Shown: in pieces, positions 6,006 to 38,116 of the stretch
Numbering within the stretch: position 1 is the first letter of the stretch
Layout of the letters: each line of letters begins with the position of its first letter
From: Dehalococcoidia bacterium LH_S1
GTDB lineage: Bacteria; Chloroflexota; Dehalococcoidia; SZUA-161; SpSt-899
Assembly: GCA_023660035.1 (NCBI GenBank)
Contig: JAGXOF010000002.1
Coordinates: forward strand, 1-38,116
DNA length: 38,116 nucleotides
Reading direction: 5' to 3'
The notes under the pieces: model-generated
The model's database searches: none
Told to the model about the DNA's origin: nothing
Seen by the model: only the letters and a program-made list of their open reading frames with translations
Position numbers and translations under genes: made by a program

Positions 6006-6016
6006 ATCGCACCCGC
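5989..6016. repeat. Perfect 28-bp palindrome spanning the LTD gene stop codon
   Basis: GCGGGTGCGATT-CATG-AATCGCACCCGC forms a 12-bp perfect stem with loop CATG and no following U-tract. It lies 14 nt before the exosortase start. Confidence 0.85.
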
Positions 6017-6029
6017 CTCTAATATAAAG

Positions 6030-16302: not shown

Positions 16303-16713
16303 CTAATGCCGTAACGATAATTCCCGTTCTCGCTCACACCACGGGCAATAGCCCTTAAGATATAACTCAGTCTTTGTAATGTTAAACCCGTGTTCCCTCT
16401 GTGCTGCTTCCACAAGCTGATTAACAAGGGGGGTTTCGAACTCAACTATCTTGCCACATCCCTGACACACCACGTGGCAATGATCCAGCTTCCCGCTCAC
16501 CTCATAGCAGTAGTGTCTCTGACCAAGGGACCTCTCATCAACTATTCCCAATTCCTTGAACAGATTCAAGCTGCGATAAACGGTAGCCGTGCTAACAGAG
16601 TTACCCTGGGCATTAGCCCGACGATATAGCTCCTTAGCATCTATATGTCCATTCACTTCACTAATCAACTTCAGAAGCAACTGGCGCTGAGAACTCTGCC
16701 GATAATTCTCCAC
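16303..16713 (-). CDS. Fur-family metalloregulator (Fur/Zur/PerR/Nur subtype not assignable)
   Basis: N-terminal winged helix (TVYRSLNLFKELGIV), HCHVVCQGCGKIVEF and YCPWC zinc-site Cys pairs. 136 aa. Confidence 0.88.
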   Translation of the reverse strand: MENYRQSSQRQLLLKLISEVNGHIDAKELYRRANAQGNSVSTATVYRSLNLFKELGIVDERSLGQRHYCYEVSGKLDHCHVVCQGCGKIVEFETPLVNQLVEAAQREHGFNITKTELYLKGYCPWCERERELSLRH

Positions 16714-16741: not shown

Positions 16742-16756
16742 TGAGAATCATTCTCA
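16742..16756. promoter_or_regulatory. Perfect 7-1-7 Fur-family operator
   Basis: TGAGAAT-C-ATTCTCA is a perfect inverted repeat with the same architecture as TGATAATnATTATCA-type boxes. It abuts the -10 element of the fur-family gene promoter. Confidence 0.7.
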
Positions 16757-17163: not shown

Positions 17164-17193
17164 TTGACAGGTAATATCTACATATGCTATATT
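17164..17193 (+). promoter_or_regulatory. Candidate promoter of the tetrapyrrole super-operon
   Basis: TTGACA (17164-17169)-N18-TATATT (17188-17193), 40 nt upstream of the ATG at 17234. It overlaps an imperfect inverted repeat GTAATAT (17171-17177)/ATATTAT (17189-17195). Confidence 0.5.
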
Positions 17194-17233
17194 ATCAACT
17201 AGATTTGTATTTAAGCAAATTAGGTTGTTCAAT

Positions 17234-18268
17234 ATGCCACAAACAGGGGTGATCATCCTAGCTCATGGGAGCCGCGGCGAGCGAGGTGTTGTAGAAGTCT
17301 CCGAGACCTTGAGAAGGGTTAGTGAGGGGGTGAAGCCCATGTTGCGACCGGGAGTAAAAGTTATTGGGGCAGCACTCCAATTTAACCACCCCAGCCTAGA
17401 AGAAGCCGTGGAGTCTTTGGCAGGGTGGGGTGTCAATCGGATGGTAATAATGCCCTACTTTCTTTTCCCAGGACGACACATTACTGAGGATATCCCTCAG
17501 CTTATTGAGCGGCTTAAGTGCACCTATCCAGAAACACAATTCATTATAACCGATATCCTCGGCTTGAATGAGCATTTTATCGATCGAGTGGCAAAATGCA
17601 TAGAGAAGGCTGCCCCCGAGCTTTCGGCGAAAGCTCGGGGTTCATCTAGCTCTGCTGAGGCGATCGAGTACCAAAGTCTAGAAATAATAGAGGGTTTGCT
17701 GCCGTCACTGGACTGCTCTGAGGAGGAACGTCAGGTAATAAAGCGCATTGTCCATGCCGCCGGCGACTCCCAAATCGCCCGTCTTGTCCGGTTTCATACC
17801 AATGCGGTCTCTGCGGGTATTGACACCATTCGCCAAGGAAAGCCGATATTCACCGACGTCAGGATGGTAGCCGTAGGTATCAATCCCCATCTCACTCAAG
17901 AGTTTGGCTGTTCCATACATTGCGCTCTAGATGAACTGAATACGATGGGACAGGCTCAAGAGGAAGGTGTTACCCGAAACGCTGCTGCTATCCGCTTTCT
18001 AGGAAGAAAGCTCGATGGGGCAATTGTTACCATTGGCAATGCCCCTACCGCTTTACTTGCCCTACTCGAGCTAATTGACAGTGGAGATGTTCTGCCGTCT
18101 CTCGTTGTAGGAATGCCTGTCGGCTTTGTGCAGGCTAGGGAATCGAAGGCAGACTTAATTAAGCGGAACATACCCTATATCACCATTGAGGGAACTCGGG
18201 GGGGGAGCGCAGTAGCTACAGCTACAGTCAATGCACTGCTAAACCTTGCCCGGGAGATTCACAAATGA
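17234..18268 (+). CDS. cbiX/cbiC: Fusion protein: small CbiX-type sirohydrochlorin cobaltochelatase (N) plus cobalt-precorrin-8 methylmutase CbiC (C)
   Basis: N-terminal about 125 aa: VIILAHGSRGERG...MPYFLFPGRHITEDIP (CbiX small). C-terminal about 210 aa: IVHAAGD..., IFTDVRMV, GNAPTALLALLELI, VVGMPVGFVQARESKA, EGTRGGSAVATATVNAL (CbiC/CobH). Confidence 0.85.
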   Translation: MPQTGVIILAHGSRGERGVVEVSETLRRVSEGVKPMLRPGVKVIGAALQFNHPSLEEAVESLAGWGVNRMVIMPYFLFPGRHITEDIPQLIERLKCTYPETQFIITDILGLNEHFIDRVAKCIEKAAPELSAKARGSSSSAEAIEYQSLEIIEGLLPSLDCSEEERQVIKRIVHAAGDSQIARLVRFHTNAVSAGIDTIRQGKPIFTDVRMVAVGINPHLTQEFGCSIHCALDELNTMGQAQEEGVTRNAAAIRFLGRKLDGAIVTIGNAPTALLALLELIDSGDVLPSLVVGMPVGFVQARESKADLIKRNIPYITIEGTRGGSAVATATVNALLNLAREIHK

Positions 18269-19353
18269 ATGGATTATCATCACCCAAAAAACCAAGATTG
18301 AAGGAACTGGTGCTGTGGGTTACCACCGACTGTAACCTCCGCTGCCGTTACTGCTACGCCAATGGCGGCGACGAGACGGAATACATGGATTGGCAAGTGG
18401 CAAAGCAAGCCCTGGACCTCATGCTCAGCCATTCTGATGGTTTTAAGGTTCAGTTCGCCGGCGGTGAGCCACTGCTCAACGTGGACTTGATTGAGCAGGT
18501 GGTGCGCTACACTCAGGGCTGGGGCGTTGCCTATCAGCTCCAAACCAACGCCACCCTCATCGATACCAGCACTGCCAGAAGCCTCAAACGGCTGGGAATA
18601 GATGTGGGTGTGAGCCTTGACGGACTACCAACGGTAAATGACTCTTTGCGTCCTTATGCCGATGGGCATGGCTCGACGGCTGCCACCATAGCCGGGCTAG
18701 AGAAGCTTCGGGTGGCTGGTATTCATGTGGGGCTGACCTGCGTCCTCTCGGCGGAGAATGTCACTGGATTGCCCGGACTAGTCGAGCTTGCCAGCTACTT
18801 GGGAAATGTAGAGGGCATTACTTTTGACCTGTTGCGGCCGATAGGAAGAGCTAAGAAGGGGAAAGTGAGGCAAGCAGACCCTGCTTTGGCAGCCCGCTTT
18901 GTAAGTGCCGCTCTCAGGCGGGCGGATGAGTTGGCACTTATAGGCGGAAGAAGGGTAAGGTTTCGTGAGGTAGAGCGTATTAACTATTTTCTTTCTCATG
19001 GGGTGGAGCGCAAATATCGCTGTTATTTCGACGCTTCCCAATATCTAGTGGTAGACCCCAAAGGCAGTGCTTATCCTTGTCCCTCCTTGACAAGTTTCCC
19101 TGAGTTTTACCTAGGCAATGTTCTGGAGCCGACCTTCATCAATGGTTTGGATGCTAATTTGAGGAGGTGCCGAGGGCTTATCACCCTACCCCATTATTGC
19201 TCTACCTGCTCTGAACGTTGGCTCTGTGCTGGCCCGTGTCCCGCCCAGACCTATGCACAGCAATTAACTGGGGAGATAAAGCCGACCGAGTGTTATATCA
19301 AAAGAGTGTTCATTGATTACGCTAGAAGAAAGGAGGTAATAAATCATGCCTAG
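18265..19353 (+). CDS. Radical SAM enzyme with C-terminal SPASM/twitch-like Cys-rich domain, function unassigned
   Basis: CNLRCRYC (CX3CX2C) near the N-terminus, GGEPLL motif, and C-terminal YRCYFDA...GSAYPCP...CSTCSERWLCAGPCPAQ...C. Overlaps both neighbouring genes. Confidence 0.85.
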   Translation: MNGLSSPKKPRLKELVLWVTTDCNLRCRYCYANGGDETEYMDWQVAKQALDLMLSHSDGFKVQFAGGEPLLNVDLIEQVVRYTQGWGVAYQLQTNATLIDTSTARSLKRLGIDVGVSLDGLPTVNDSLRPYADGHGSTAATIAGLEKLRVAGIHVGLTCVLSAENVTGLPGLVELASYLGNVEGITFDLLRPIGRAKKGKVRQADPALAARFVSAALRRADELALIGGRRVRFREVERINYFLSHGVERKYRCYFDASQYLVVDPKGSAYPCPSLTSFPEFYLGNVLEPTFINGLDANLRRCRGLITLPHYCSTCSERWLCAGPCPAQTYAQQLTGEIKPTECYIKRVFIDYARRKEVINHA

Positions 19354-21433
19354 ATTAGTCTATCCCTTTAGCGCCATTGTGGGGCAAGAGAACATGAAGA
19401 AGGCGTTGCTACTCAATGCTATCAACCCCAGGATCTGGGGGGTGCTTCTTCGAGGTGAAAAGGGGACGGCTAAGTCCATAGCGGTGCGAGCTCTGGCTCA
19501 ACTCCTTCCTCAAATTAAGGTGGTATCTGATTGTCCCTTTTCCTGTGAAACTGAGCGTGAAGATGGTCTATGTGACACTTGCGCTGCCAGAGTAGCTAAG
19601 GGTGAGAAGCTCGGTGTTGCCTGGAGGCAGGTATCGGTAGTAGACATGCCAATAGGGGCTACCGAGGACAGGGTTGTAGGCACACTTGACATCGAGAGGG
19701 CAATCAAAACCGGAGAGAAGCACTTCGAGCCAGGACTTCTGGCTGCTGCCAATCGGGGCATCCTATACATCGACGAGGTGAACCTGCTGGATGACCATCT
19801 GGTGGATGTTTTACTTGATGCCGCTGCCATGGGGATGAACTTTGTGGAGCGGGAGGGAATCTCCTTCAGTCATCCGGCGCAATTCATCCTGGTGGGCACC
19901 ATGAACCCCGAGGAGGGTGAGCTCCGCCCTCAGTTGCAGGATCGCTTTGGACTGGCAGTAGAGGTCAAAGGTATTCAGGACCAGGAGGCCAGGGCAGAGG
20001 TGGTCAGGCGACGCATCGCCTTTGAGAGGGACCCCATAGCCTTTGCCGCTACCTACGAGAAGGAACAAGAGGGGATACGACAACAAGTTACGGAGGCCAA
20101 GAAACTGCTACCCGCGGTGCAGCTCAGTGAGGAGATGCTGAAGCTCATTACTCAGATATGCATTGACTTCGCTGTTGATGGTCACCGCGCTGACATTGTG
20201 ATACATAAGACTGCTACTACCCTTGCTGCCTATCATGAGAGAACCGAGGTAAATGAGGAGGATGTGAGGGAGGCGGTTGAGCTAGCACTTCTTCACCGCC
20301 GTCGCCGCCAGCCCTTTGAGGAGCCGGAGCTAAGTCAGCAGCAGCTTGAGGAGAGCATTCAAAGGTGGCGTCAGAATCAGGAGAATCACCCTGAAGATAA
20401 GCAGGAGCAAGAAGAGGAACAAGACTCTCCACCCACCAACACGCCTCGGCATAATGATATCAATGATTCACCTGAAGAAGAGGAACAAGACTCTCCACCC
20501 ACCGATACGCCTCCACATAGCGACACCAATGATTCACCTGAAGATGGGGAAAAGCCCCAAAGAGAGCAAACCTTTGAAGCTGAGCCACCATACAAGGTAA
20601 GACCGCTGGTTGCTCCTGTGCTGGATCAGATTTCTCGGAGTGAAACAGGACGACGGTCAAAGAGCAGGACGAGTTCCAAAACTGGGCGCTATGTGGACAG
20701 CACCATTCCTCGGGGAAAAACAAGCGACCTTGCTTTTGATGCTACCCTGCGAGCGGCAGCCCCCTTCCAAGTGCAGAGGAGGGAGGAAATGCCAGGACAG
20801 AATACGCTGCTTATTAAGAGTCACGACCTGCGAGAAAAGGTGCGTGAGAGAAAGGTGGGAAATCTTATTGTGTTTATCCTCGATGCCTCAGGCTCGATGG
20901 CCGCTGAGGAGAGGATGGTAGCTACCAAGGGAGCTGTTCTGTCCCTATTACTTGATGCCTATCAGCGGCGGGACCGGGTGGGGATGGTGGTCTTCCGAGG
21001 GGAGAAGGCAGAGCTGGTGTTGCCTCCCACCAACAGTGTGGAGCTGGCACAAAAATATCTCAACCATCTTCCCACCGGCGGGCGCACCCCCCTGGCTCAC
21101 GGGCTAAAGCTGGGGCTGGACACCATTAAGGAATATTTGTGGAGAGATAAACAGGCCCTTCCCTTGGTGGTCTTGGTTTCCGATGGGAGGGGAAATGTAA
21201 GTCTTAATGGGAGTGACCCAATTGAGGAAGCCAAGAGAATAGCCCAGGAGATAAGAGCAATGAATATCAGGTCGATCGCCATTGATACTGAGCAAGGCTT
21301 CGTTACTTTCAGGCTGGTAGCGCAAATCTGCACTGAACTGGGAGGAACCTACCTGCGGCTGGAGGAACTAAAATCCGCTCCCATAGCCTCTGCCGTGAGG
21401 GGTAACCTGGGCTATGCAGATGAAAGGGGATGA
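19346..21433 (+). CDS. Class I chelatase ATPase/vWA subunit (ChlI/BchI-like AAA+ module fused to ChlD/BchD-like vWA module)
   Basis: [16 protein letters not shown], Walker A GEKGTAKS, Walker [10 protein letters not shown], acidic/Pro-rich linker, vWA domain with MIDAS DASGSM and VLVSDGRGN. 695 aa. Confidence 0.88.
20411..20542 (+). repeat. In-frame 66-nt tandem duplication inside the chelatase linker
   Basis: Units 20411-20476 and 20477-20542 differ at about 8 of 66 positions. They encode [22 protein letters not shown] and [22 protein letters not shown]. Confidence 0.9.
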
Positions 21434-21514
21434 TAGACATGAAGAAGTAAAAAACAGAGGGTGATAAGACCACGCCAGAAGTGCTGAAGTCAAACACCCT
21501 AGCTTGAGTTCATT

Positions 21515-21688
21515 ATAGCAAATTTGAAAGGAGGAAAGTTGATGAAAAAGATAATACTAATAGCAGTTGCTGTTGCTCTGGTGGTAAGCCTCTTTGCTGC
21601 CTCATGTGCTCCTAAAAGGGAGGAAGAGGCTTTACCAAAGTCGATCTCCATTGTTGACTCGGCGGGGAGAACTGTTGAGGTTCCTCAA
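21515..21688 (+). repeat. Copy 1 of the near-identical 5' UTR/RBS/signal-peptide block shared by the two SBP genes
   Basis: About 174 nt, nearly identical (a handful of substitutions and one 3-nt indel) to 22628-22798. Identity collapses abruptly after GAGGTTCC. Confidence 0.9.
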
Positions 21689-22627
21689 CCTTTGAATAAG
21701 GTTATCGTCGTTTACAGCCATCTTCTGCTCACAACGAAGGGTTTGGGCATAGGTGACGAGGTGATAGTTGGCCTCGACGAATTTACACTCGGTCAGTATA
21801 AAGAGATTTTCCCTGGATTGAGCGAAAAGCCCACGATTGGGCAAAATTTCTTCCACCTGGATCTTGAAAAAATAATCGCTCTTGACCCTCAAGTTTTGAT
21901 TACCCTTCCATTCGCCTTGAAGAAATTGCCAGAGCTTGAAGCCACACTTGAAAGTGCGGGGATAAAAGTGGTGGCGCTAGATTTCAAGCTTGGGAATGTC
22001 CAAGATGTGATAAAGACGCTAGGAAAGATGTTCGGCAAGGAGAGAAGGGCTGAGGAGTACAGTGAGTTCTGGTTTAGCAAGCTAGACATGGTTCAGGAAA
22101 GGGTGAACGCGCTTAAGGATGAAGAAAAGGTCCGGGTTTACTGGGAAAATACCATGACACCCTATAAGACAGTCTCTAAGGAGGGGAAGCCGCATGAGCT
22201 ACTGAATATGGCCGGCGGGTTAAACATTGCTCAAGACCTTATGGGAAGCTATCCTGAGGTAGACCCAGAATGGGTCATCACCCAAGACCCAGATATGATA
22301 CTGAAGTATCCCATGGGAGCGGAGTATCAAGGGGGATTTGGCAAGACCGATACCGAGCCATTCGAGGAGATGAGACACGAAATAATGGAACGGCCTGGTT
22401 TTGACCAGATAAAGGCAGTAAAGGAAGGGAAGGTTTACATTCTATCTCAGATCATTAAGGGAGGGGCGTTTGAAAATGTGGGAATATGCTATATCGCTAA
22501 GCTCCTTTACCCCGACCTCTTTAAAGACCTCGACCCCGAAGCCTACCTTGAAGAGATGATAGAGGAATACTACGGTTTGAATTTTGATGAGGTGAAGGGG
22601 GTCTTTGTATACCCCAAGCCTTTCTAA
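21542..22627 (+). CDS. ABC transporter substrate-binding lipoprotein, FecB/BtuF (chelate-binding) family, paralogue 1
   Basis: Lipoprotein signal MKKIILIAVAVALVVSLFAASC. Periplasmic-binding-protein type 2 pattern (VDSAGRTVEVP..., DPQVLIT, KVYIL). ATG at 21542 preceded by AAAGGAGGA. Confidence 0.8.
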   Translation: MKKIILIAVAVALVVSLFAASCAPKREEEALPKSISIVDSAGRTVEVPQPLNKVIVVYSHLLLTTKGLGIGDEVIVGLDEFTLGQYKEIFPGLSEKPTIGQNFFHLDLEKIIALDPQVLITLPFALKKLPELEATLESAGIKVVALDFKLGNVQDVIKTLGKMFGKERRAEEYSEFWFSKLDMVQERVNALKDEEKVRVYWENTMTPYKTVSKEGKPHELLNMAGGLNIAQDLMGSYPEVDPEWVITQDPDMILKYPMGAEYQGGFGKTDTEPFEEMRHEIMERPGFDQIKAVKEGKVYILSQIIKGGAFENVGICYIAKLLYPDLFKDLDPEAYLEEMIEEYYGLNFDEVKGVFVYPKPF

Positions 22628-22798
22628 ATAGCAAATTTGAAAGGAGGAAAGTTGATGAAAAAGATAATACTAATAGCAGTTGCTCTTGCTCTGGTGGTAA
22701 GCCTCTTTGCTGCCTCATGTGTTCAAAAGGAGGAAGAGGCTTTACCAAAATCAATCACCATTGTTGACTCGGCGGGGAGAACTGTTGAGGTTCCCCAG
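22628..22798 (+). repeat. Copy 2 of the shared 5' block
   Basis: See 21515-21688. Confidence 0.9.
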
Positions 22799-23722
22799 CC
22801 GCTGGAGAGGATAGCTGTTTGGAATGGTGCGGTTGCTGAGGTAATTCGTGCCCTTGGTGCGGCGGATAAGATTATTGCTATCAACAAGTATATGCCTAAA
22901 GACGATTATTACTGGCCGGGGCTGAAGGATAAGCCCCAAATAGGTAGCCCTTGGAGCATCGATTATGAAAAAATTGTAGAACTTAGCCCTCAAGTCTTGA
23001 TCACCTATTCTAAATATCCTTCAGGTACGGAACTGGAGGAGAAGCTAGAGCCTGCCGGAATCAAAGTGGTCAGATTGGATTGTTATGGACTGGAAGATGA
23101 AATCAGAGACATAAAAATCCTGGGCGTATTACTTGACAGAGAGAAAGAGGCTGAGGAGTTCGCCAGTTTCCTTCAGTCCAAAATTGACCTTGTAGACGAG
23201 AGGATAAATGAAATAGAGCCTGAGGAAAGGGAAAGAGTTTACTGGGAAATGGGGCATAAAGACTACTATACAGTCGCTGAGGGTTCTGCTGCTCACAAGC
23301 GCCTTTGCAGAGCAGGGGGGATCAATGTTTTCGCTGGTATGGGTGTGTCATATTCGGAGATAGACCCTGAAGAAATTCTGATGAAGGAACCTGATGTGGT
23401 TATTAAGGACCCACATGGCACTAAAGTTGGAGGTTACACAGCCACCGAGACCAGCGATATGGAAGCTAAAAGGGATGAGATGATGAACCGTGCTGCTTGG
23501 AGTGAGCTCAAGGCGGTGAAGAATGGAGAGCTATATATAATGGGTGACGACCTCATGGGGGCTACGGACCCGATACGGCTTTGCTATTACGCCAAACTCC
23601 TCTATCCCGATAGATTTGAGGATTTGGATGTTGAGGCTTTTCACCGGGAGTATATGGAAAAGTATCAGGGTTTAGAGTTCAAAGGGATATATGTATATCC
23701 ATGTCCCTGGAAGGCTGAATAG
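22655..23722 (+). CDS. ABC transporter substrate-binding lipoprotein, FecB/BtuF family, paralogue 2
   Basis: Same signal peptide and first roughly 45 residues as paralogue 1. After that, by eye, only roughly a third of residues are identical. Confidence 0.8.
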   Translation: MKKIILIAVALALVVSLFAASCVQKEEEALPKSITIVDSAGRTVEVPQPLERIAVWNGAVAEVIRALGAADKIIAINKYMPKDDYYWPGLKDKPQIGSPWSIDYEKIVELSPQVLITYSKYPSGTELEEKLEPAGIKVVRLDCYGLEDEIRDIKILGVLLDREKEAEEFASFLQSKIDLVDERINEIEPEERERVYWEMGHKDYYTVAEGSAAHKRLCRAGGINVFAGMGVSYSEIDPEEILMKEPDVVIKDPHGTKVGGYTATETSDMEAKRDEMMNRAAWSELKAVKNGELYIMGDDLMGATDPIRLCYYAKLLYPDRFEDLDVEAFHREYMEKYQGLEFKGIYVYPCPWKAE

Positions 23723-23745
23723 GCAAAGCAAAGGATTACATAGTT

Positions 23746-23775
23746 TATGGGGGCGAGGCATGCCTTGCCCCCATA
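23746..23775 (+). other. Strong intercistronic hairpin between the SBP genes and the permease gene
   Basis: TATGGGGGCGAGG-CATG-CCTTGCCCCCATA forms a 13-bp stem (one G-U) with loop CATG and no U-tract. Confidence 0.8.
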
Positions 23776-23797
23776 AAGAGAAGGGGAGGATTAGATC

Positions 23798-24874
23798 GTG
23801 GCATCAAAGACGGAAGCGGTTGAGGCGAAGGAGGCATATGCCAAGCTTACCGGCAGGAAGGTACTTTTTATCCTGGTAGGGCTCGGGGGTGTGGTGGCCT
23901 TGGTCTTGGTAGCAACCTCTCTTGGCTCAGCCGACTTGGGGGTGAGCAGTGTAGCCTCTGCTATCGCTGCCAGGATATTTCCCTTCCTTGATCTAGAGGT
24001 AAGCACTAAGGTAGATGTCATCGTTTGGGGTATAAGGCTACCCCGAGTTGTTCTGGGGGTGGTTGCTGGAGCGGGACTAGCCGTCTCTGGGGCAGCGATG
24101 CAGGGAATTATGCGAAACCCTTTAGTAAGCCCCTTTACCTTAGGTATATCCTCAGCGGCTGCCTTCGGAGCATCTATAGCCATTGTCCTGGGAATGGGAA
24201 TGGTTGGCAGTGAAAAATATCTCATAATTACCAATGCCTTTGTCTTTGCTCTGCTGGCCGCCTTTCTGGTCTATGGTCTTGCCAGAATAAGAGGTATGAG
24301 ACCGGAGACATTGATTCTAGCAGGAATCGCCTTGATGTATTTCTTTTCTGCCGCCACTTCGCTGCTGCAATACATTGCCACCAAAGAAGAGCTCCAGACA
24401 GTAATTCACTGGCTTTTCGGAAGCCTTACCGGAGCAAGCTGGGAGAACATATTGATAGTTGTAATTATCTCCTTCTCCTGCCTTCCCTTTTTGATAAAGT
24501 ATTCCTGGGATGTGAATACCATGGTTGCCGGTGATGATGTAGCTACTAGTCTTGGGGTAAATCCCCGCAGGGTAAGGACGGTTTATATGGCACTGGCGAC
24601 TCTGATTACCGCCGGAATCATCTGCTTTACCGGGATTATCGGCTTTGTTTGCCTGGTAGCGCCGCACATAACCCGCATGATAATCGGAGCCGACCACAGA
24701 TTTCTGCTCCCCAGCTCCTGTATCATGGGAGGGCTTTTGCTCCTGGGAGCTGATACCCTGGGCAGGACTGCTTTTCAACCGGCCATAATCCCGGTGGGGA
24801 TAGTGATCTCAGTTATCGGCGTTCCCTTTTTCCTTTTTTTAATTTTGAGAACAAGGAAGGAGTATTTTCAATGA
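23798..24874 (+). CDS. FecCD/BtuC-family ABC permease
   Basis: Polytopic 358-aa protein with typical FecCD strings (RLPRVVLGVVAGAGLAVSGAAMQGIMRNPLVSPFTLGISSAAAFGA; FTGIIGFVCLVAPHITRMIIG). GTG start. Confidence 0.88.
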   Translation: MASKTEAVEAKEAYAKLTGRKVLFILVGLGGVVALVLVATSLGSADLGVSSVASAIAARIFPFLDLEVSTKVDVIVWGIRLPRVVLGVVAGAGLAVSGAAMQGIMRNPLVSPFTLGISSAAAFGASIAIVLGMGMVGSEKYLIITNAFVFALLAAFLVYGLARIRGMRPETLILAGIALMYFFSAATSLLQYIATKEELQTVIHWLFGSLTGASWENILIVVIISFSCLPFLIKYSWDVNTMVAGDDVATSLGVNPRRVRTVYMALATLITAGIICFTGIIGFVCLVAPHITRMIIGADHRFLLPSSCIMGGLLLLGADTLGRTAFQPAIIPVGIVISVIGVPFFLFLILRTRKEYFQ

Positions 24875-25704
24875 GGCTAGAAATAAAGGATATACAATTC
24901 AACTACGGAAGCGTGCCTGTCCTGGAGGATATCAGTCTGGGTATAAAGGGTGGGGAGGTGTTGAGCCTGGTAGGCCCCAACGGTTCGGGTAAGACTACCC
25001 TGTTAAAGTGTATAAACAGGATTTTGAAGCCCAAAAGGGGGACTATACTAGTAGAAGGCAAGGATGTAACCAGGGTGGGGTTAAAGGAGCTTGCCCGCTC
25101 TCTGGGTTATGTCCCTCAAAGCGCTCTCTCTTCCTTCCCCCTTACGGTCTATGATACAGTTCTTCTGGGGAGAAAGCCACATGTGAATTGGAAGTTAGGT
25201 GAAAGGGATAAGGGGATAGCCTTTGGAGTGCTCAGGCTAATGGAACTCGATGATATGGCGCTCAGGCTGGTTAGCGAATTGAGCGGGGGGGAAAAACAGA
25301 AGGTGCTTATGGCAAGGGCGCTCGCACAGGAGCCTCAGGTTCTGCTTCTTGATGAGCCAACAAGCAACCTCGATTTAAGACACCAGCTTGAGGTTTTGCA
25401 TCTTATCGTGGATATGGTGAAGGAGAGGGGTTTATCGGCAGTAATGGCAATGCATGACCTAAATCTGGCTTTAAGATTCTCGAGCAAGATAGCAATGGTA
25501 AAGGGCGGCAAGATATACGCCGCTGGTGAACCCAGGGCAGTTCTTAACTCAGGTAACATAAGAGAGGTATATGGAGTTGAAACCACCATAAGTAGTGATT
25601 CAGGGAGACCCTACATTATACCTTTGACTTCGACGGGAAAAACTTCCAGGACGAAGGTCGTATCAAAAAGAATGATTCGGGAAGACCTTACATTATACGT
25701 TTAA
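24871..25704 (+). CDS. ABC ATPase of the chelate importer (FepC/BtuD-like)
   Basis: Walker A GPNGSGKTT, signature LSGGEKQ, Walker B LLLDEPTSNLD. ATGA overlap with the permease gene. The C-terminal tail is reshaped by a tandem duplication. Confidence 0.9.
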   Translation: MRLEIKDIQFNYGSVPVLEDISLGIKGGEVLSLVGPNGSGKTTLLKCINRILKPKRGTILVEGKDVTRVGLKELARSLGYVPQSALSSFPLTVYDTVLLGRKPHVNWKLGERDKGIAFGVLRLMELDDMALRLVSELSGGEKQKVLMARALAQEPQVLLLDEPTSNLDLRHQLEVLHLIVDMVKERGLSAVMAMHDLNLALRFSSKIAMVKGGKIYAAGEPRAVLNSGNIREVYGVETTISSDSGRPYIIPLTSTGKTSRTKVVSKRMIREDLTLYV

Positions 25705-25750
25705 CCTTAGCTGGCAAGGGTTCCGGGATGAAAGTCATATCAAAGGAGGA
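25597..25750 (+). repeat. Imperfect 77-nt tandem duplication at the 3' end of the ATPase gene
   Basis: Units start at 25597 and 25674 (GATTCAGGGAGACCCTACATTATAC... and GATTCGGGAAGACCTTACATTATAC...) and are roughly 70% identical. The period is not a multiple of 3. Confidence 0.85.
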
Positions 25751-25757
25751 TTAAATC

Positions 25758-28700
25758 ATGGAAAAGGCAAGGATAGCTTATTTTACCACCGGCGGAGCGG
25801 ATGTCATTCCCCTCGTCTCAGCAGTTAGAGCCATAACTGAGGAGAAAGGAGAGATTATAGAGGTCTGCCTCCGAACCAGGGAGGATTTCATGCAACCGGG
25901 CAAGTTGGAAGAGTTTATCCATTTCGCCCAGGAATGCCATCTAGTTATCCTGCATCTTATGGGAGGCAAGAAGAGCTTCTCTGACTTTGACAAGTTTATG
26001 TCTTCGCTAGAGGGTAAGGGCATTCCCATCTATGCCCAGGGGTCGGGTGGCGAGCTGGACACGGAATTAGTCCGCCTTTCCACCGTGGATAAGGATGACT
26101 ACCAGGGAATCTCCCGCTATATCAATTACGGAGGAACTGAGAACTTCAAGAATCTTCTCCTGCATATAGCAAATCGTTTTGCTGGTGCCAATTACGAGCT
26201 TATGGGGCCTGAGAGACCCCCCTGGGAGGGAATCTATCACCCTGATTTTGACTACCTGCCAACATTGGATGAATACCTGGAGAAAAAGCATATAGCCGGT
26301 CGGCTCACTGTGGGGCTCTGGTTTTATCAAAGTTTCTGGCAAGCCAGAAACACCGTCTTTGTAGATAGACTAATCGAGGAGATTGAAAAGCAAGGGGCAA
26401 ACGTCATCCCAGTATTTCTTTATAGTGTTAAGGATATAGACCTCGGCACTAAAGGAGCGGAGTGGGTGGTTAAGAACTACTTTATGAAAGATGGTGAGCC
26501 CCTAATCGATGTCTTGATTAGTCCCTTGATGTTCTCCTTGTCTATGAGGGTGTCCCAGAGTCCAGAGGGCAGTGAGGTGATACCACAGGAGAATGAAGGA
26601 TTCTTAAACAGGCTGGGAGTGCCTGTGATAAAGGCAATCTTAACCTACAATACCCTGGAGGAATGGCGGGATACCTTGCAGGGGCTAAATCCCATGGATG
26701 TGACTATGAGTATAGCCATGCCTGAGTTCGATGGCATGTTGATTACAGTGCCGGTAGCTGCCAGAAACTTCTCTGATACCGACCCCTTAACCGGAGCCAG
26801 AATAGTCAGGTATGAACCCATCGGCGAAAGGGTCAGCAAGGTCGTTCGTCTGAGTCTGAACTGGGCAAGGCTGAGGCACATCCCCAGCAACGAAAAAAAG
26901 GTGGCTATCATCTTCCACAACTATCCACCGCGAAACGACCGAATTGGCACTGCCTTCGGATTGGATTCCCCGGTTTCGGTGTGGAACATCCTGCGCGACA
27001 TGAAGGAGGCAGGATACGAACTGGATTGCCTGCCCGAAAGTGGGCAGACTTTAATTGAGGACATAATTGAACGGGTCACTAACGACCGTAGGTGGGCAAG
27101 CCCTGAGGAGATGGCAAAAAGGGCAGTGGACAAGGTTTCTCACCAGCAATACATGGGATGGTTTCAAGAGCTTCCAGAGGAAGTGCAAAGTAAAATGGTG
27201 CGGGCTTGGGGTAAGCCTCCGGGTAAGCTCTTCAACCACAGGAACAAGCTACTTATCCCAGGACTCATCAACGGCAACATCTTCATCGGGCTCCAGCCAC
27301 CCAGAGGATTCTTGGATGACCCCGCTGCCATTTATCACAGCCCCGACCATCCCATGCCCCACCACTACTACGCCTACTATCGCTGGATACGGGATGTGTT
27401 CGGAGCCAATGCAGTTATGCATATCGGCAAGCACGGCTCCCTGGAGTGGCTACCAGGAAAATCGGCAGGTCTTTCCGAATCCTGTTTCCCTGATATCGCC
27501 ATCTCTGATTTGCCCAATATCTATCCCTACATCATCAATAACCCCGGCGAGGGCACCCAGGCAAAGAGGAGGAGCTACTGCTGCATCATTGACCACCTGG
27601 TTCCGGTGATGCACAACGCCGATACCTACGAAGAGATAGCCGGGCTGGAAGTGCTAATAAACGACTATAAGCACGCCACTGTTGAAGACCGGGGGAAAAT
27701 TCCAGAATTACAGAAAATGATATGGGAGAAGACTTGCCAAGCCAAGCTGGACCATGACCTGGAAATTGACGAAGCGGCGGCTTTTGCTGATTTTGACGGC
27801 TTCCTGGAGAAGCTGCATGGCTATATAGACGAACTGGCGGATACCCAGATTAGAGAGGGACTGCATACCCTGGGTGAGCCACCGGTTGATTCGCGCCTGG
27901 ACGAGTTCTTGGTCGCCCTGACCCGGCTAAGCAATGGTGATGTGTCCTCACTAAGGCAATCCCTGGCTGAGATGAAGGGTTACGATTATGATGGCCTCCT
28001 GGCAAACAGAGGAAAGCTGCAATCCGATGGCAAAAGCAACGGGGACATAATTGAAGAGCTAAACGAAGTCTCCTTACAGCTTGTGCAGAGGCTTCACAAC
28101 GAGGGATTCAGGGAGGAGAGCATTGATACTATAGCCAATGAAATATTGGGGCAGAGCAATTCAAATATTAGAAGAGTGTTAACCTATATTGCAAATTCCA
28201 TTGCCCCCAATATTGCCGCTGCCACTGATGAATTAACTAATACCCTGTTGGCTGCCAGTGGGGAGTTTATTCCACCCGGTCCCTCGGGTGCCCCTACCAG
28301 AGGGATGGCTGATATTCTGCCCACAGGCAGAAATTTCTACTCCTTAGACCCCCAGACTATACCCTCTCCTGCTGCCTGGAGGGTGGGGGTGGCTCAGGGT
28401 GATGCCCTGCTGGAGCGCTATCTGAAGGACGAGGGGAAATATCCTGAGAACATCGGCATTATCATCTGGGGAAGCCCCACTATGAGAACCAAGGGGGACG
28501 ACATTGCTGAAATCTTTTACTTAATGGGTGTTAAGCCAATTTGGGAAGAGAGTAGCGGAAGAGTGAGGGGAATTGAGGTTATTCCCCTTGAGGAACTGGG
28601 TCATCCCCGCATTGATGTTACCCTTCGTATCAGCGGACTCTTCCGGGATGCTTTCCCCAATATCGTTCACCTTATTGACGAGGCAGTGGAGATGGTATAC

Positions 28701-29570
28701 AATCTTGACGAAGCTCGGGAGATGAATTACCTGACCAAGCATGTTCGGGAAGAGACGGAGGAAAGGATAGCGGCAGGCATGAATTTTGAGCAAGCAAGGG
28801 AGGAAGCTGGCTACCGTATTTTTGGCTGCAAACCAGGGGCTTATGGTGCCGGAGTCAGCGATGCCATAGATGCTAAGAACTGGAAGGATGAGAAAGACCT
28901 GGGTGAGATTTATGCGGTTTGGGGTGGTTACGCCTACGGGAAAAAGAATTACGGAGCAACGGTGCCTGAGCAGTTCAAGAAGCGCTTGAGCCAGCTTGAT
29001 TTAACTGTCAAAAACGAGGATACACGGGAATACGATATGCTGGATAGCGATGATTTTTATTCCTTTCACGGGGGAATGATTGCCGCCGTCAAGGCCTTCA
29101 AGGGGGAGCTACCCCAGTCATATAGCGGTGATGCCTCTGACCCCGACCGGGTGAAGGTAAGAAGCACGGCCGAGGAGACCAAGCATATCTTTAGAGCCAG
29201 GATTCTCAACCCCAAGTGGATTGAGAGCATGAAGCGCCATGGCTACAAGGGTGCAGGAGACATCTCTCGAATGGTGGATATAGCATTTGGCTGGGATGCC
29301 ACTGCTGAGGTACTGGAAGACTGGATGTATGAGGAGCTGGCCAAGAAATATGCCCTGGACAAGGATATGCAGGAGTGGCTAAAAGAGGTCAATCCCTATG
29401 CTCTCCAGAACATCGCTGAAAGGCTACTGGAAGCTATCGAGAGAGACATGTGGCAGGCAACAGAGGAAATGAAGCAAGAGCTACAGAATATTTATCTGGA
29501 TATTGAAGGGATGCTGGAGGAAAGCCAGTCAAAGGGAGAGAGAGCAGGGAATGAAGGAGGAAGGGATTGA
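25758..29570 (+). CDS. cobN: CobN-family large chelatase subunit (class I chelatase porphyrin-binding subunit)
   Basis: 1270 aa. CobN/ChlH-like strings such as IFHNYPPRNDRIGTAFGLD, MHIGKHGSLEWLPGK, YIINNPGEGTQAKRR and LNPKWIESMKRHGYKGAGD. Confidence 0.9.
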   Translation: MEKARIAYFTTGGADVIPLVSAVRAITEEKGEIIEVCLRTREDFMQPGKLEEFIHFAQECHLVILHLMGGKKSFSDFDKFMSSLEGKGIPIYAQGSGGELDTELVRLSTVDKDDYQGISRYINYGGTENFKNLLLHIANRFAGANYELMGPERPPWEGIYHPDFDYLPTLDEYLEKKHIAGRLTVGLWFYQSFWQARNTVFVDRLIEEIEKQGANVIPVFLYSVKDIDLGTKGAEWVVKNYFMKDGEPLIDVLISPLMFSLSMRVSQSPEGSEVIPQENEGFLNRLGVPVIKAILTYNTLEEWRDTLQGLNPMDVTMSIAMPEFDGMLITVPVAARNFSDTDPLTGARIVRYEPIGERVSKVVRLSLNWARLRHIPSNEKKVAIIFHNYPPRNDRIGTAFGLDSPVSVWNILRDMKEAGYELDCLPESGQTLIEDIIERVTNDRRWASPEEMAKRAVDKVSHQQYMGWFQELPEEVQSKMVRAWGKPPGKLFNHRNKLLIPGLINGNIFIGLQPPRGFLDDPAAIYHSPDHPMPHHYYAYYRWIRDVFGANAVMHIGKHGSLEWLPGKSAGLSESCFPDIAISDLPNIYPYIINNPGEGTQAKRRSYCCIIDHLVPVMHNADTYEEIAGLEVLINDYKHATVEDRGKIPELQKMIWEKTCQAKLDHDLEIDEAAAFADFDGFLEKLHGYIDELADTQIREGLHTLGEPPVDSRLDEFLVALTRLSNGDVSSLRQSLAEMKGYDYDGLLANRGKLQSDGKSNGDIIEELNEVSLQLVQRLHNEGFREESIDTIANEILGQSNSNIRRVLTYIANSIAPNIAAATDELTNTLLAASGEFIPPGPSGAPTRGMADILPTGRNFYSLDPQTIPSPAAWRVGVAQGDALLERYLKDEGKYPENIGIIIWGSPTMRTKGDDIAEIFYLMGVKPIWEESSGRVRGIEVIPLEELGHPRIDVTLRISGLFRDAFPNIVHLIDEAVEMVYNLDEAREMNYLTKHVREETEERIAAGMNFEQAREEAGYRIFGCKPGAYGAGVSDAIDAKNWKDEKDLGEIYAVWGGYAYGKKNYGATVPEQFKKRLSQLDLTVKNEDTREYDMLDSDDFYSFHGGMIAAVKAFKGELPQSYSGDASDPDRVKVRSTAEETKHIFRARILNPKWIESMKRHGYKGAGDISRMVDIAFGWDATAEVLEDWMYEELAKKYALDKDMQEWLKEVNPYALQNIAERLLEAIERDMWQATEEMKQELQNIYLDIEGMLEESQSKGERAGNEGGRD

Positions 29571-29574
29571 CTGA

Positions 29575-30429
29575 ATGATTATCATCGAAAAGCTCACCAA
29601 GGTATATGGCGAGGTTAGGGCGGTTAAGAAACTGAACCTGGAAGTATATTCGGGCGAGATTTTTGGCTTTTTGGGTCCCAACGGTGCTGGGAAAACCACC
29701 ACTCTCCGCATCCTGACCACCCTGACCAAGCCAACATCGGGGTGTGTCTGGATAAAAGGCTTCGATGTAATCACTCAGCCCCTTCAGGTAAAGGGAGAGT
29801 TTGGGGTAGTACAGCAACACCTGAGTTTGGATCGAGAGCTAACGGTGTGGGAGAACATGGAACTCCATGCCCGGTTGCATCACATTGGGGGTGTAGAGCG
29901 GCGGCGCCGCATCGCCGAGCTATTGGATTATGTGGAACTCAGCCAGTACGCCAATCAAATAGTTGAAAATCTTTCGGGTGGAATGAAGAGGCGACTGATG
30001 ATTGCCCGCGCCCTTATACATCGCCCCAAGCTACTTTTCCTTGATGAGCCTACGGTAGGGCTGGATGCTCAGACGCGGCGTCGCCTGTGGGAATTGATCC
30101 GACGGATGAACCTCGACGGCGCCACCGTTTTTCTCACCACCCACTATATTGAGGAGGCCGAGGCTCTCTGTCACCGCGTGGGAATCATTTACCAGGGACA
30201 GCTTATTGCCCTCGGCAGTCCTCTAGAACTGCGTCAGCAAGTGGGCATGACCACCGTGGAAACGCTTTCTGATAATAAGGATCCCGACTATCACTACTTT
30301 TCAGACAGAGCAGCAGCAACGGCCTACGTTCAGAGTTTGCCTCCTGAAGTCAAGACTATCACCACACGAGACTCCAATCTGGAGGATGTATTTGTGGAAT
30401 TAACCGGACGAAAGGTAGGCGACGATTAA
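29575..30429 (+). CDS. ABC-2-type exporter ATPase
   Basis: Walker A GPNGAGKTT, LSGGMKRRL, LLFLDEPTVGLD. DrrA/CcmA-like architecture with a C-terminal regulatory extension. Confidence 0.85.
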   Translation: MIIIEKLTKVYGEVRAVKKLNLEVYSGEIFGFLGPNGAGKTTTLRILTTLTKPTSGCVWIKGFDVITQPLQVKGEFGVVQQHLSLDRELTVWENMELHARLHHIGGVERRRRIAELLDYVELSQYANQIVENLSGGMKRRLMIARALIHRPKLLFLDEPTVGLDAQTRRRLWELIRRMNLDGATVFLTTHYIEEAEALCHRVGIIYQGQLIALGSPLELRQQVGMTTVETLSDNKDPDYHYFSDRAAATAYVQSLPPEVKTITTRDSNLEDVFVELTGRKVGDD

Positions 30430-30481
30430 GGTAAAGGTATTAAAGGATAGCTATTCAGTCTGGTGGGCAGATCTGAGGATT

Positions 30482-31174
30482 TTGAGACACCTCTGGCAAC
30501 GTTTCCTCATTACCAGCCTGATGAGTCCACTGCTCTATCTTCTCGCCTTTGGCTACGGGCTGGGAAGAGGTATGGAAGTTGAAGGGGTAAGCTATCTTGA
30601 GTTTGTGATTCCAGGGATCATTGCCCTTACCGCCATGACCACGAGCTTTAATAGTGCCGGAATGAAGCTGAATGTAGACCGGCTTTTTTACAAATGTTTT
30701 GATGAGATTTTGATGGCTCCGGTAAGCCCGTTATCCTTGATACTTGGGAAGTCCCTAATAGGTGTCCTGCGAGGACTTATCGTCTCCCTGGTTTTCCTGA
30801 TAATAGGCATAGCTATCTCTCCAATGAAGGTTAGTCCGCTTTTCATATTGCCCCTGTTGCTCACTTGCTTCACCTTTTCCTTCATGGGTGTTCTGGCTGC
30901 CCTGCTGGCAAAATCGCATCAGGATATGGCCACCTTCAGCAGCCTAGTGCTGTTACCGATGACTTTTCTTGGTGGCACCTTCTTCTCTTCAAGCCAGTTG
31001 CCACAGGCGCTAAAGGTTATCCTATATATCATCCCACTGACTCATTCCAGTCAATGCCTGCGAGCGGTAACTCTTGGGCAGCCTTTCCCTTGGCTCTCTT
31101 TATTAGCTATTGTGGGCTTCGGGCTAGCCTTCTTTGTCGGGTGCGTGATGGTGCTAAGGAGGGCCAGTGTATAA
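30482..31174 (+). CDS. ABC-2-type exporter permease (true start probably upstream, possibly ATT at 30425)
   Basis: Six-TM ABC-2 pattern. The frame is open from 30419, and the upstream codons (KVKVLKDSYSVWWADLRIL) look like a genuine ABC-2 N-terminus. Confidence 0.8.
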   Translation: MRHLWQRFLITSLMSPLLYLLAFGYGLGRGMEVEGVSYLEFVIPGIIALTAMTTSFNSAGMKLNVDRLFYKCFDEILMAPVSPLSLILGKSLIGVLRGLIVSLVFLIIGIAISPMKVSPLFILPLLLTCFTFSFMGVLAALLAKSHQDMATFSSLVLLPMTFLGGTFFSSSQLPQALKVILYIIPLTHSSQCLRAVTLGQPFPWLSLLAIVGFGLAFFVGCVMVLRRASV

Positions 31175-31184
31175 AGGGGAAGCA

Positions 31185-37812: not shown

Positions 37813-38116
37813 ATGGATAGACAAAATAACAAATTGCTACGCTCAGGCTATACTACAGGCGCCTGTGCTGCCGCAGCGGCTAAGGCGGCTGCTCTTGCTC
37901 TGCTCAACCAGAGGATGGTTAAGCAGATTCAGATCACTCTTCCTGCAGGGGAAAAGGTAAATTTTGTGGTGAGTCGTTGTATATTCGATAGCCTTGAGGC
38001 GTCCTGCTCGGTGATAAAGGATGCTGGGGATGACCCTGATGTGACCAATGGGGTAGAAATCTATGCCACAGTGTCGTGGAGCAAAGGGGTGGGGGTCAGT
38101 GTCGAAGGTGGGGAGG
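37813..38116 (+). CDS. cbiD: Cobalt-precorrin-5B C1-methyltransferase CbiD, 5' part (runs off the window)
   Basis: ATG at 37813. Reads MDRQNNKLLRSGYTTGACAAAAAKAAALALL...VIKDAGDDPDVTNGVEIYA, the typical CbiD N-terminus. The frame is open to the window end. Confidence 0.85.
   Translation, partial: MDRQNNKLLRSGYTTGACAAAAAKAAALALLNQRMVKQIQITLPAGEKVNFVVSRCIFDSLEASCSVIKDAGDDPDVTNGVEIYATVSWSKGVGVSVEGGE

Follow-up and report, generated by a model that had tools for sequence, protein, structure and literature searches.

CobN, the large subunit of class I cobaltochelatases, has been described in several settings with which a locus of Dehalococcoidia bacterium LH_S1 can be compared (assembly GCA_023660035.1, contig JAGXOF010000002.1, positions 1 to 38,116; this whole stretch of 38,116 nt is called the window here). 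In Pseudomonas denitrificans and Brucella, the aerobic, cobalt-late CobNST enzyme (PDB 9UK9-9UKC) follows a motor-adaptor-catalytic subunit logic (bioRxiv 10.64898/2026.07.21.739949). In haloarchaea (Haloferax HVO_B0051/B0050, Natronococcus), Ralstonia and Mycobacterium tuberculosis (CobN 7C6O), a large CobN is accompanied by a single AAA+/linker/vWA protein, ChlID (families TIGR02257 and TIGR02442). PMC9227772 credits Rodionov 2003 with the replacement of CobST by ChlID, and PMC6460266 credits the same study with a class of CobN that is B12-regulated and differs from both ChlH and BtuS. In the strict anaerobe Dehalobacter restrictus, "operon-2" (syntenic with Acetobacterium woodii) joins a class I chelatase to FecBCD-class importers; behind a cobalamin riboswitch it carries FepBCD-like transporters, two CbiZ, CobN and Mg-chelatase subunits, and it is induced by corrinoid starvation 346-fold at the transcript level and 46-fold at the protein level (PMC4285132). 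HmuS/BtuS of Bacteroidota (PDB 9D26) share the CobN/ChlH superfamily fold and are likewise tied to metallo-tetrapyrrole uptake, and the paper on HmuS calls the role of archaeal CobN homologues unclear (PMC12583661). In haloarchaea, CobN coexists with the class II chelatase CbiX, which has been speculatively attributed to salvage (PMC8305020). The haloarchaeal and HmuS papers both raise explicitly the question of why cobalt-early organisms also keep an ATP-driven CobN. The window and its relatives narrow this question, since their CobN appears to be built as a true cobaltochelatase, lies in the cobalamin regulon, and travels between domains of life as a unit with an importer, a radical S-adenosylmethionine (SAM) enzyme and an exporter.

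The window CobN and ChlID belong to a conserved eight-gene module comprising a radical SAM enzyme with a SPASM domain, ChlID, one or more substrate-binding proteins (SBPs), a FecCD permease, an ATP-binding cassette (ABC) ATPase, CobN, and the ATPase and permease of an ABC-2 exporter (Table 1). Here and below, family assignments are Pfam and NCBIfam profile matches with curated cut-offs, and riboswitches are Rfam matches. The module lies on the + strand in a run of genes that extends from 17225 to beyond the window end at 38116, in which successive genes are spaced by -8 to +90 nt (negative values being overlaps); the short gaps throughout and one strong promoter indicate a single operon. Within it, the radical SAM gene overlaps cbiXC at one end and chlID at the other, and the ABC-2 exporter pair (29575-31174) starts directly 3' of cobN. 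From SBP2 to hemL the window agrees letter for letter with an independent Logan contig, and the gene order is preserved in an 86%-identical relative, so that the arrangement is not an assembly artefact or a chimera. An earlier note on this DNA, made from the sequence alone, had named the chelatase and importer genes, and all of these were recovered at the coordinates, on the + strand, and with the lengths and Walker motifs that it gave. Where it counted five genes between the two chelatase subunits there are four (SBP1, SBP2, the FecCD permease and the ABC ATPase), and while its pairing of importer and chelatase stands, it overlooked the radical SAM gene and the ABC-2 exporter, both conserved members of the module. 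The conserved module, the pairing of CobN with a radical SAM/SPASM enzyme, the ABC-2 exporter, the nested importer and the exchange between Archaea and Bacteria were not found in the literature searched, and the module with its radical SAM and exporter genes is apparently undescribed so far. The interpretation we favour, which we judge about evenly balanced between right and wrong, is that CobN and ChlID form an ATP-driven class I cobaltochelatase that provides a second entry of cobalt into the corrinoid pathway, coupled to corrinoid-type uptake, with CbiX serving de novo synthesis.

By family membership and active-site residues, the window CobN is the predicted large catalytic subunit of a class I cobaltochelatase. 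It scores 1087.6 bits against the CobN equivalog model TIGR02257 (cut-off 822) and 1409 bits against PF02514 over residues 120-1238; the BchH model TIGR02025 is slightly above its cut-off of 829 at 852.7 bits, yet 235 bits under the CobN model. Its PDB matches fall in the order M. tuberculosis CobN (878 bits), Brucella CobN (744), ChlH (530) and HmuS (369, in the C-terminal part only). The HxGxHGSLE loop of the superfamily, of which HmuS shares the HxGxHG core, reads HIGKHGSLE at residues 554-562 and aligns with the loops of M. tuberculosis and Brucella CobN. At residues 594-605, NNPGEGTQAKRR contains NNPGE, whose Glu is the equivalent of ChlH E660, and in domain V REYDMLDSDDFYSFHGGM (residues 1090-1107) fits the CobN-specific REhDxxDSDDyyxfxGGM, as these motifs are defined in PMC12583661; like the loop, both align with M. 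tuberculosis and Brucella CobN. The domain V counterparts are REHDIADSDDYFQYHGGM in M. tuberculosis CobN and REHDLLDSDDYYQFEGGM in Brucella CobN; the same site reads SEISLTDVSHYFDSD in ChlH (DVSHYFD type) and LSLDHxxEFMGG in HmuS. At the site that defines HmuS, the window protein reads MLDSDDFYSFHGG, with Asp in place of His-1209. Homology to the CobN of CobNST is full-length, with identical domain III and V motifs, and the motor-adaptor-catalytic logic is the same; unlike CobNST, however, the window motor and adaptor are ChlI/BchD-like, not CobS/CobT, and are fused in one polypeptide.

The window CobN is 37-45% identical to annotated CobNs (37% to that of Sinorhizobium, 39-45% to those of haloarchaea, Ralstonia and M. 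tuberculosis) and 31% identical to a BchH. In a neighbour-joining tree with few references (100 bootstraps, no maximum-likelihood run), it falls in an anaerobe clade with 100% support that is sister to haloarchaeal CobN; this pair is in turn sister to a clade of Sinorhizobium, actinobacterial, Deinococcus and Ralstonia CobNs, with BchH as the outgroup. The earlier note had proposed a phylogeny to see whether the protein falls in an uncharacterized clade: in this small tree it stands apart from the CobST-dependent and actinobacterial CobNs, but on the CobN side of BchH. No bch gene is among the annotated window genes. The maximum 19-residue hydropathy of the window CobN is 1.3, and it has no transmembrane segment or signal peptide; ChlID likewise lacks a hydrophobic segment. 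Both proteins are therefore expected to be cytoplasmic.

These data bear on whether the chelatase serves a metal or macrocycle outside B12 metabolism, such as Ni for F430-type cofactors, Mg, or Fe/heme, which we consider very improbable. Although the BchH model is nominally above its cut-off (853 versus 829), the CobN model is 235 bits ahead, the motifs are of CobN type and not of ChlH type, and there is no bch/chl or cfb gene among the annotated window genes. The closest relatives outside the Dehalococcoidia are methanogen CobNs with 70% identity, and PMC12583661 calls it unclear what archaeal CobN homologues do; however, the module also occurs in Dehalococcoidia, Firmicutes, Latescibacterota and a Deltaproteobacteria metagenome-assembled genome (MAG), all non-methanogens in which use of F430 is not expected, and it is surrounded by cobalamin riboswitches and B12 genes. 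The idea in the earlier note that the second chelatase handles a different metal, or a porphyrinoid such as heme, is thus unlikely given the CobN-type motifs, the cobalamin riboswitches of relatives and a CobN that lacks a membrane anchor. Its companion idea of corrinoid salvage or remetallation fits the riboswitches and the CbiZ, BtuR and CbiM contexts set out below.

The second chelatase component, ChlID, scores 846.4 bits against TIGR02442 ("putative cobaltochelatase", cut-off 779.45). In PDB searches its residues 3-328 match ChlI (365 bits) and residues 506-649 match the vWA domain of BchD, which gives a layout of an AAA+ module with a Cys4 insert, an acidic, proline-rich linker, and a vWA domain with a metal-ion-dependent adhesion site (MIDAS). 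The Cys4 insert (CPFxC...CDxC) is common to the ChlIDs of Natronococcus and Ralstonia, and is thus a feature of the wider family. Walker A reads GEKGTAKS at residues 36-43, the second Walker motif lies at 139-147, the sensor and Arg motifs are intact, and so is the MIDAS (DASGS at 512-516, T581 and D613); the Walker A/B, sensor/Arg and MIDAS motifs are kept in nine relatives. As the earlier note supposed, the 695-aa protein therefore looks active, judging from its intact and conserved motifs. There is no second AAA+ chelatase gene (ChlI or CobS) in the window, and a programmed frameshift that would yield a small subunit was rejected, as codons 330-450 of chlID hold no slippery heptamer or homopolymer run; the fusion thus presumably serves as motor and adaptor at once. 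The stretch of chlID that encodes the linker (20409-20551) contains a 66-nt tandem repeat (2.2 copies, 87% matches), which encodes EEEQDSPPT(N/D)TP.H.D.NDSPE twice.

In its pairing of a large CobN with one AAA+/linker/vWA protein, and in its active-site motifs, the window resembles the haloarchaeal and Ralstonia loci, which lie among cbi genes and, in Natronococcus, next to cbiC. The Natronococcus and Ralstonia loci, in contrast, lack the radical SAM/SPASM enzyme, the FecBCD-class importer and the ABC-2 exporter of the window clade. No biochemically proven substrate was found in the literature searched, either for CobN-ChlID of the haloarchaeal type or for the window clade.

The class II chelatase of the window is the CbiX part of a CbiX-CbiC fusion, which matches NF004449 (bifunctional CbiX/CbiC) over its full length but under the cut-off, and which retains the two catalytic His of CbiX (HGS at 14-16, GRH at 83-85). 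The coexistence of both chelatase classes in one operon, CbiX on one side and CobN/ChlID on the other, was correctly read from the sequence before, with cbiD present in part at the window end. The redundancy itself is no new puzzle, however, since it has already been described for haloarchaea (PMC8305020), and the window is a further instance. The genomic context is cobalt-early (CbiX, CbiD), unlike that of the cobalt-late CobNST: among the annotated window genes there are no CobS/T/W/G- or CobF-type genes of the cobalt-late route, and the neighbors are CbiX-CbiC, cbiD and hem genes. The hem genes of the operon (sirC-hemA, hemC, cobA/hemD, hemB and hemL) cover the route from glutamyl-tRNA to sirohydrochlorin, and occur in the same order in two relatives (L037 and L038; L numbers denote individual loci).

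To place the module among its relatives, we compared CobN loci across genomes. The window CobN is matched best in Dehalococcoidia MAGs, at 82-87% identity, and next in Methanothrix soehngenii, at 70%. When one genome from each GTDB species was scanned, 31 CobN loci emerged, spread over Dehalococcoidales, Methanotrichaceae, Bathyarchaeia-like archaea, one MAG of Deltaproteobacteria, one Clostridia genome and one contig that had been binned as Calditrichales. Further loci were reached through the radical SAM protein in Desulfofundulus luciae, Latescibacterota and Methanosuratincola, and a scan of metagenome contigs with the same protein gave only three close loci, one of which (L049) has a riboswitch. 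Components were counted at the 25 CobN loci flanked by 8 kb or more: the radical SAM gene is present at 17 of these, SBP genes at 16, FecCD at 12, the importer ATPase and the ABC-2 pair at nine each, and ChlID at eight. The frequency of the radical SAM gene makes it a conserved partner of this CobN clade. Moreover, the link between importer and chelatase is not accidental, in keeping with what the earlier note proposed, given the counts for SBPs and FecCD (16/25 and 12/25) and the recurrence of the same nested order, chlID-SBP-FecCD-ATPase-cobN, in a Bathyarchaeia-like archaeon (L021). Every module component shows cross-domain identities of 47-70%, which indicates that the module has been transferred between Archaea and Bacteria. 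On one 363-kb contig (L004) the whole cassette stands alone, near integrases and without cbi or hem genes, and in M. soehngenii GP6 the cassette is rearranged.

The nesting of the importer between the chelatase subunits, which the earlier note had pointed out, is not a fixed feature. It is absent from L022, which is ~84% identical to the window in DNA (L022:2587-7585 versus window 19346-28242) and in which the order is Fur-chlID-cobN, with cobN ~470 nt after chlID; this is the contig binned as Calditrichales, although it is probably from Dehalococcoidia. Blocks of the module are therefore separable, and the importer block is an insertion/deletion polymorphism among close relatives.

Across the relatives, the neighboring genes encode BtuR, CbiM, CbiZ, CobT/S/U, CbiB and DUF4430 surface proteins. 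In thirteen Methanotrichaceae loci, the CobN-radical SAM unit adjoins CbiZ and a tandem CN_hydrolase protein, and in Methanosuratincola it stands beside five SBPs and CbiMQO. In Methanotrichaceae, the tandem CN_hydrolase protein (amidase/nitrilase, 570-590 aa) and a long CbiZ (406 aa) flank the CobN-radical SAM unit (L003:6970-9932), and in Desulfofundulus luciae CN_hydrolase stands before cobN (L039:4464-6173); an amidase beside CobN could adjust the side-chain amides of corrinoids.

A cobalamin riboswitch precedes the module in five bacterial relatives (L037, L049, L040, L039 and L025). In L037, with 86% CobN identity, it is followed by btuR-cbiXC-rSAM-chlID-SBP-fecCD-ATPase-cobN-ABC2-hemA (rSAM, radical SAM gene), so that the CbiXC fusion lies inside a riboswitch-led btuR operon, and in L049 and L040 it lies directly before cbiXC-rSAM. 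In L040, from Latescibacterota, a salvage operon of a TonB receptor, cobT, cobS, cobU, cbiB and cbiZ stands ahead of cbiXC-rSAM. In Desulfofundulus luciae (L039) the riboswitch leads CN_hydrolase-cobN-rSAM, and in the Clostridia genome (L025) cobN-SBP-rSAM. A second cobalamin riboswitch in the latter (L025:7774-14846) governs two SLH-anchored DUF4430 surface proteins and a CbiQ-like energy-coupling factor component, which are likely a cell-surface B12 capture system beside CobN-SBP-rSAM. The riboswitch and gene contexts of these relatives, together with the expression data from D. restrictus (PMC4285132), place the module in the B12 regulon, and argue against a role in iron/heme or in Ni/Mg metabolism.

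In the window lineage, a plain promoter beside a Fur-family gene seems to have taken the place of the riboswitch leader; alignment of the window leader with those of L049 and L037 gave no riboswitch remnant. The Fur-family protein reaches the cut-off of none of the NCBIfam subfamilies (Fur, Zur, PerR, Irr), and a second, unrelated Fur-family gene overlaps the chlID start in L022 (L022:2106-2618). The window protein is possibly a metal-responsive (cobalt- or nickel-) regulator of the module, a link that we draw tentatively, and the palindrome TGAGAATCATTCTCA ahead of its gene may be a Fur-type box for auto-regulation. A wider Fur-box regulon was rejected: the palindrome at 16742 is the only exact copy in the window, and matches with up to three mismatches are no commoner than in shuffled sequence.

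The importer has the composition of the type II, BtuFCD class (Peripla_BP_2 SBPs, a FecCD permease and an ABC ATPase), an architecture shared by BtuFCD, which imports corrinoids, and CbtJKL, which imports cobalt, with cobalamin riboswitch control as in the relatives of the window. The top NCBIfam model of the permease is NF007081 (archaeal-type BtuC; 252 bits, under its cut-off of 461) and that of the ATPase is NF007082 ("corrinoid ABC transporter ATPase"; 231 bits, under its cut-off of 537), while the SBPs reach 37-47 bits against the BtuF model NF002894 (cut-off 234). Both SBPs have lipoprotein signal peptides with the lipobox AASC. They lie about equally far from BtuF, IsdE, FhuD-like and Ni-(His)2-binding proteins, with BtuF only distantly related (E ~1e-12). 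The best PDB matches of SBP2 are 4mo9, for which no ligand is known, and binders of siderophores, Ni-His or B12; the literature gave no ligand data beyond YiuA for the best-matching SBP structures. The balance tilts towards a corrinoid ligand through the several divergent SBPs per locus, the CbiZ neighbors and the separate CbiM in the operon of a relative, and up to five tandem SBP paralogs in relatives suggest chemically varied organic ligands.

We also considered an SBP of the CbtJ type, which binds cobalt. CbtJKL of S. meliloti was located on pSymB behind its riboswitch (CbtJ, L051:11645-12712), and this candidate was rejected, as BLASTP of SBP2 against CbtJ gave E=0.22 with 18% identity and CbtJ belongs to an EitA-like subfamily. 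SBP1 and SBP2 are themselves 48% identical as proteins, and at the DNA level they agree by ~97% over the ribosome-binding sites, the signal peptides and the first ~58 codons (21480-21700 versus 22593-22810), a pattern suggestive of gene conversion or of a recent duplication of the 5' part. Their true starts are probably the ATG 18 nt inside each listed open reading frame (MKKIILIAVA...), at 21542 for SBP1. A 77-nt direct repeat (25596-25744; 1.9 copies, 76% matches) covers the 3' end of the gene for the importer ATPase together with the spacer that separates it from cobN.

The uncertain ligand leaves room for a high-affinity de novo route, in which CobN/ChlID would metallate sirohydrochlorin or factor II at very low cobalt (e.g. 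under sulfidic conditions) and the importer would carry an organic cobalt chelate; we regard this as possible, though on balance doubtful. The module does lie inside a de novo operon, with cbiXC, hem genes and cbiD here and btuR and cbiM in relatives, and CobN-ChlID stands among cbi genes and cobalt transporters in haloarchaea and Ralstonia; however, the operon of a relative already has CbiM for cobalt, and the frequent CbiZ and B12-uptake neighbors suggest salvage. CbtJKL offers a precedent as a BtuF-like, riboswitch-controlled importer of Co(II) (PMC7689651), and FecB-class SBPs can bind Ni-(His)2 (PDB 4ls3/4ino, among the SBP matches), yet the window SBPs are not relatives of CbtJ (E=0.22), and several divergent SBP paralogs per locus are hard to square with a single ion. 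Riboswitch control would suit biosynthesis and salvage equally, and Fur-family genes stand beside the module at two loci. The active-site motif of the window CobN, though, is that of CobNs which insert cobalt late.

In the interpretation we favour, that of a second cobalt entry coupled to corrinoid-type uptake, corrinoid scarcity would lead to expression of the module, through the riboswitch in relatives and by way of the plain promoter in the window. The BtuFCD-class importer, with its lipoprotein SBPs, would bring in a corrinoid-type ligand, and CobN, powered by ATP hydrolysis in ChlID, would insert Co2+ into a cobalt-free, ring-contracted corrinoid, as its family and active-site residues suggest. 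This substrate would resemble hydrogenobyrinic acid a,c-diamide, which CbiX, a sirohydrochlorin enzyme, would be unable to use. With CbiX for de novo synthesis and CobN/ChlID for a second entry point, the two chelatases would not be redundant. The radical SAM enzyme and the ABC-2 exporter may have this macrocycle, or a by-product, as their substrate. The nearest published functional context for such a system is D. restrictus operon-2, which we liken to the window by its published description (PMC4285132); its chelatase subunits, however, are described as several separate proteins, and the window has no CbiZ.

Several observations weigh against this interpretation. To our knowledge, a cobalt-early organism (CbiX, CbiD) makes no endogenous cobalt-free corrinoid, and we know of no work that establishes cobalt-free corrinoids in anoxic habitats. 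A model of B12 supply leaves the radical SAM enzyme and the exporter unexplained, as do the other readings considered here. In haloarchaea, in Ralstonia and in this Dehalococcoidia lineage, the chelatase stands among de novo genes and not among salvage genes, and L022 has neither the four importer genes between chlID and cobN nor a radical SAM gene upstream. The window itself has no cobalamin riboswitch at the Rfam gathering threshold, nor one at E<=10 in the 5' region. None of the importer proteins (SBPs, permease and ATPase) reaches the equivalog cut-off of BtuF, BtuC or BtuD, and CbtJKL shows that a BtuF-like, riboswitch-controlled ABC importer can carry Co(II), not a corrinoid (PMC7689651).

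The two components that B12 supply leaves over were characterized further. The radical SAM protein has the motifs CX3CX2C (at 23-30), CX13GX4C, CX2CX5CX3C and a final C, and thus a full seven-Cys SPASM domain, and it lacks an N-terminal peptide-recognition domain. No NCBIfam family matches it above its cut-off. Its distant homologs, with 47-61% identity, again adjoin CobN or CbiXC. A role in maturing a ribosomally synthesized and post-translationally modified peptide or a metallophore was considered, and is unlikely: the best NCBIfam match, the ranthipeptide maturase PapB, is far under its cut-off, a recognition domain is lacking, and operon gaps of at most 90 nt leave no room for a precursor gene. 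CobN as the target of the radical SAM enzyme was likewise set aside, since the clade has only nine specific invariant positions, of which one is a Cys (C609), giving the idea no support. The PDB matches of the ABC-2 ATPase are ABCA-type exporters, and it is 64-69% identical to its Methanotrichaceae counterparts. The ABC-2 permease, present at nine of the 25 well-flanked loci, gave no matches in a PDB search. Its open reading frame in the window is at most 230 aa long; the L004 and L037 versions have 248-249 aa and begin right at the ATPase stop, so the N-terminus of the window protein may be shortened or its start mis-set (30429-30482).

Taken together with the chelatase, these genes might make up an undescribed corrinoid-processing machine, in which the chelatase and the SPASM radical SAM enzyme act on imported corrinoids in the forward or the reverse direction; we offer this tentatively, as a suggestion with a much better chance of being wrong than right. 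In the forward version, cobalt-free or damaged scavenged corrinoids may be metallated. In the reverse version, cobalt may be extracted from unusable corrin complexes at the expense of ATP, and the ABC-2 pump may expel the spent macrocycle.

Removal of metal is also the core of a dechelatase model, in which CobN strips imported corrinoids or other metallo-tetrapyrroles for their cobalt or iron, the radical SAM enzyme handles the macrocycle and the ABC-2 exporter expels it. We consider this model unlikely. The CobN homolog HmuS is an experimentally shown heme dechelatase (PMC12583661), but the HmuS motif LSLDHxxEFMGG is absent from the window protein, which has Asp for His-1209. Moreover, HmuS is a periplasmic protein with membrane anchors, operates with NADH and membranes in a context of hmuY and the TonB receptor gene hmuR, and occurs without ATP-dependent genes of the ChlI/D or CobS/T type, whereas the window CobN is predicted to be cytoplasmic, is accompanied by ChlID with an intact AAA+ motor, and has no hmu genes near it in the window. 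An importer and an exporter in one module would suit a cycle of import, stripping and expulsion, and CbiZ and the tandem CN_hydrolase beside CobN-rSAM (in Methanotrichaceae, with CN_hydrolase also in Desulfofundulus) could reverse CbiB and CbiP/CobQ, returning a cobamide to an intermediate at the level of CobN; remodeling by CbiZ would nevertheless be cheaper than destroying the corrin, and enzymatic removal of cobalt from corrin was not found in the literature searched. Finally, Fur-family neighbors speak for the model, but the relatives are regulated by cobalamin riboswitches, not by iron.

Whichever direction applies, the genes of the module are candidates for a step that corrinoid salvage or cobalt economy still lacks. 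Dehalococcoidia, Methanothrix and Bathyarchaeia matter in anoxic sediments, in digesters and in bioremediation, where the supply of B12 or cobalt limits activity. If the substrate is indeed an imported corrinoid, models of B12 cross-feeding would change; and if the module is a corrinoid machine, forward or reverse, anaerobes would have a second metal-level entry to, or exit from, the B12 pathway that has been traded between Archaea and Bacteria.

Table 1. Features of the chelatase operon and its upstream region in the window
Feature	Position	Strand	Evidence or remark
Fur-family regulator gene, divergent from the operon	16303-16713	-	Pfam FUR 102 bits
Perfect 7-1-7 palindrome TGAGAATCATTCTCA	16742-16756	unstranded	29 nt upstream of the Fur-family start codon
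Sigma-70-like promoter	17164-17193	+	TTGACA, 18 nt, TG-n-TATATT; 11/12 positions, extended -10
CbiX(S)-CbiC fusion	17225-18268	+	Pfam CbiX 74 bits, CbiC 238 bits
Radical SAM/SPASM enzyme	18265-19353	+	Pfam Radical_SAM, Fer4_12, SPASM
ChlI/ChlD fusion (ChlID), 695 aa	19346-21433	+	Pfam Mg_chelatase, AAA_lid_2, VWA; TIGR02442
SBP1, cluster A-II lipoprotein, Peripla_BP_2	21524-22627	+	Pfam/NCBIfam matches
SBP2, paralogous lipoprotein, Peripla_BP_2	22637-23722	+	Pfam/NCBIfam matches
FecCD-family permease	23798-24874	+	Pfam FecCD 300 bits
Importer ABC ATPase	24871-25704	+	NCBIfam NF007082 top match
CobN, 1270 aa	25758-29570	+	Pfam CobN-Mg_chel 1409 bits; TIGR02257
ABC-2 exporter ATPase (DrrA/ABCA-like)	29575-30429	+	TIGR01188 318 bits versus cut-off 312
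ABC-2 exporter permease	30482-31174	+	Pfam ABC2_membrane
SirC-HemA fusion	31167-33101	+	Family matches
HemC, CobA/HemD, HemB, HemL	33098-37810	+	Family matches
cbiD 5' part, 101 codons, cut by the window end	37813-38116	+	TIGR00312 117 bits over 101 aa

Some further observations concern the remainder of the operon and the window. In a close relative, an insertion sequence element with a DDE_Tnp_1 transposase breaks the cobA/hemD fusion gene of the corresponding operon (L038:7619-10306). Upstream in the window, and unconnected with the chelatase module, an exosortase (EpsH) gene comes after that of a lamin-tail-domain protein (5229-6857), and the two are maybe a protein-sorting pair. Positions 733-4125 hold a run of genes of fatty-acid/polyketide type, for dehydratases (FAS1-like and MaoC), an SDR reductase and a short fragment of a ketoacyl synthase (193 aa), whose truncation suggests a degraded or unusual cluster.

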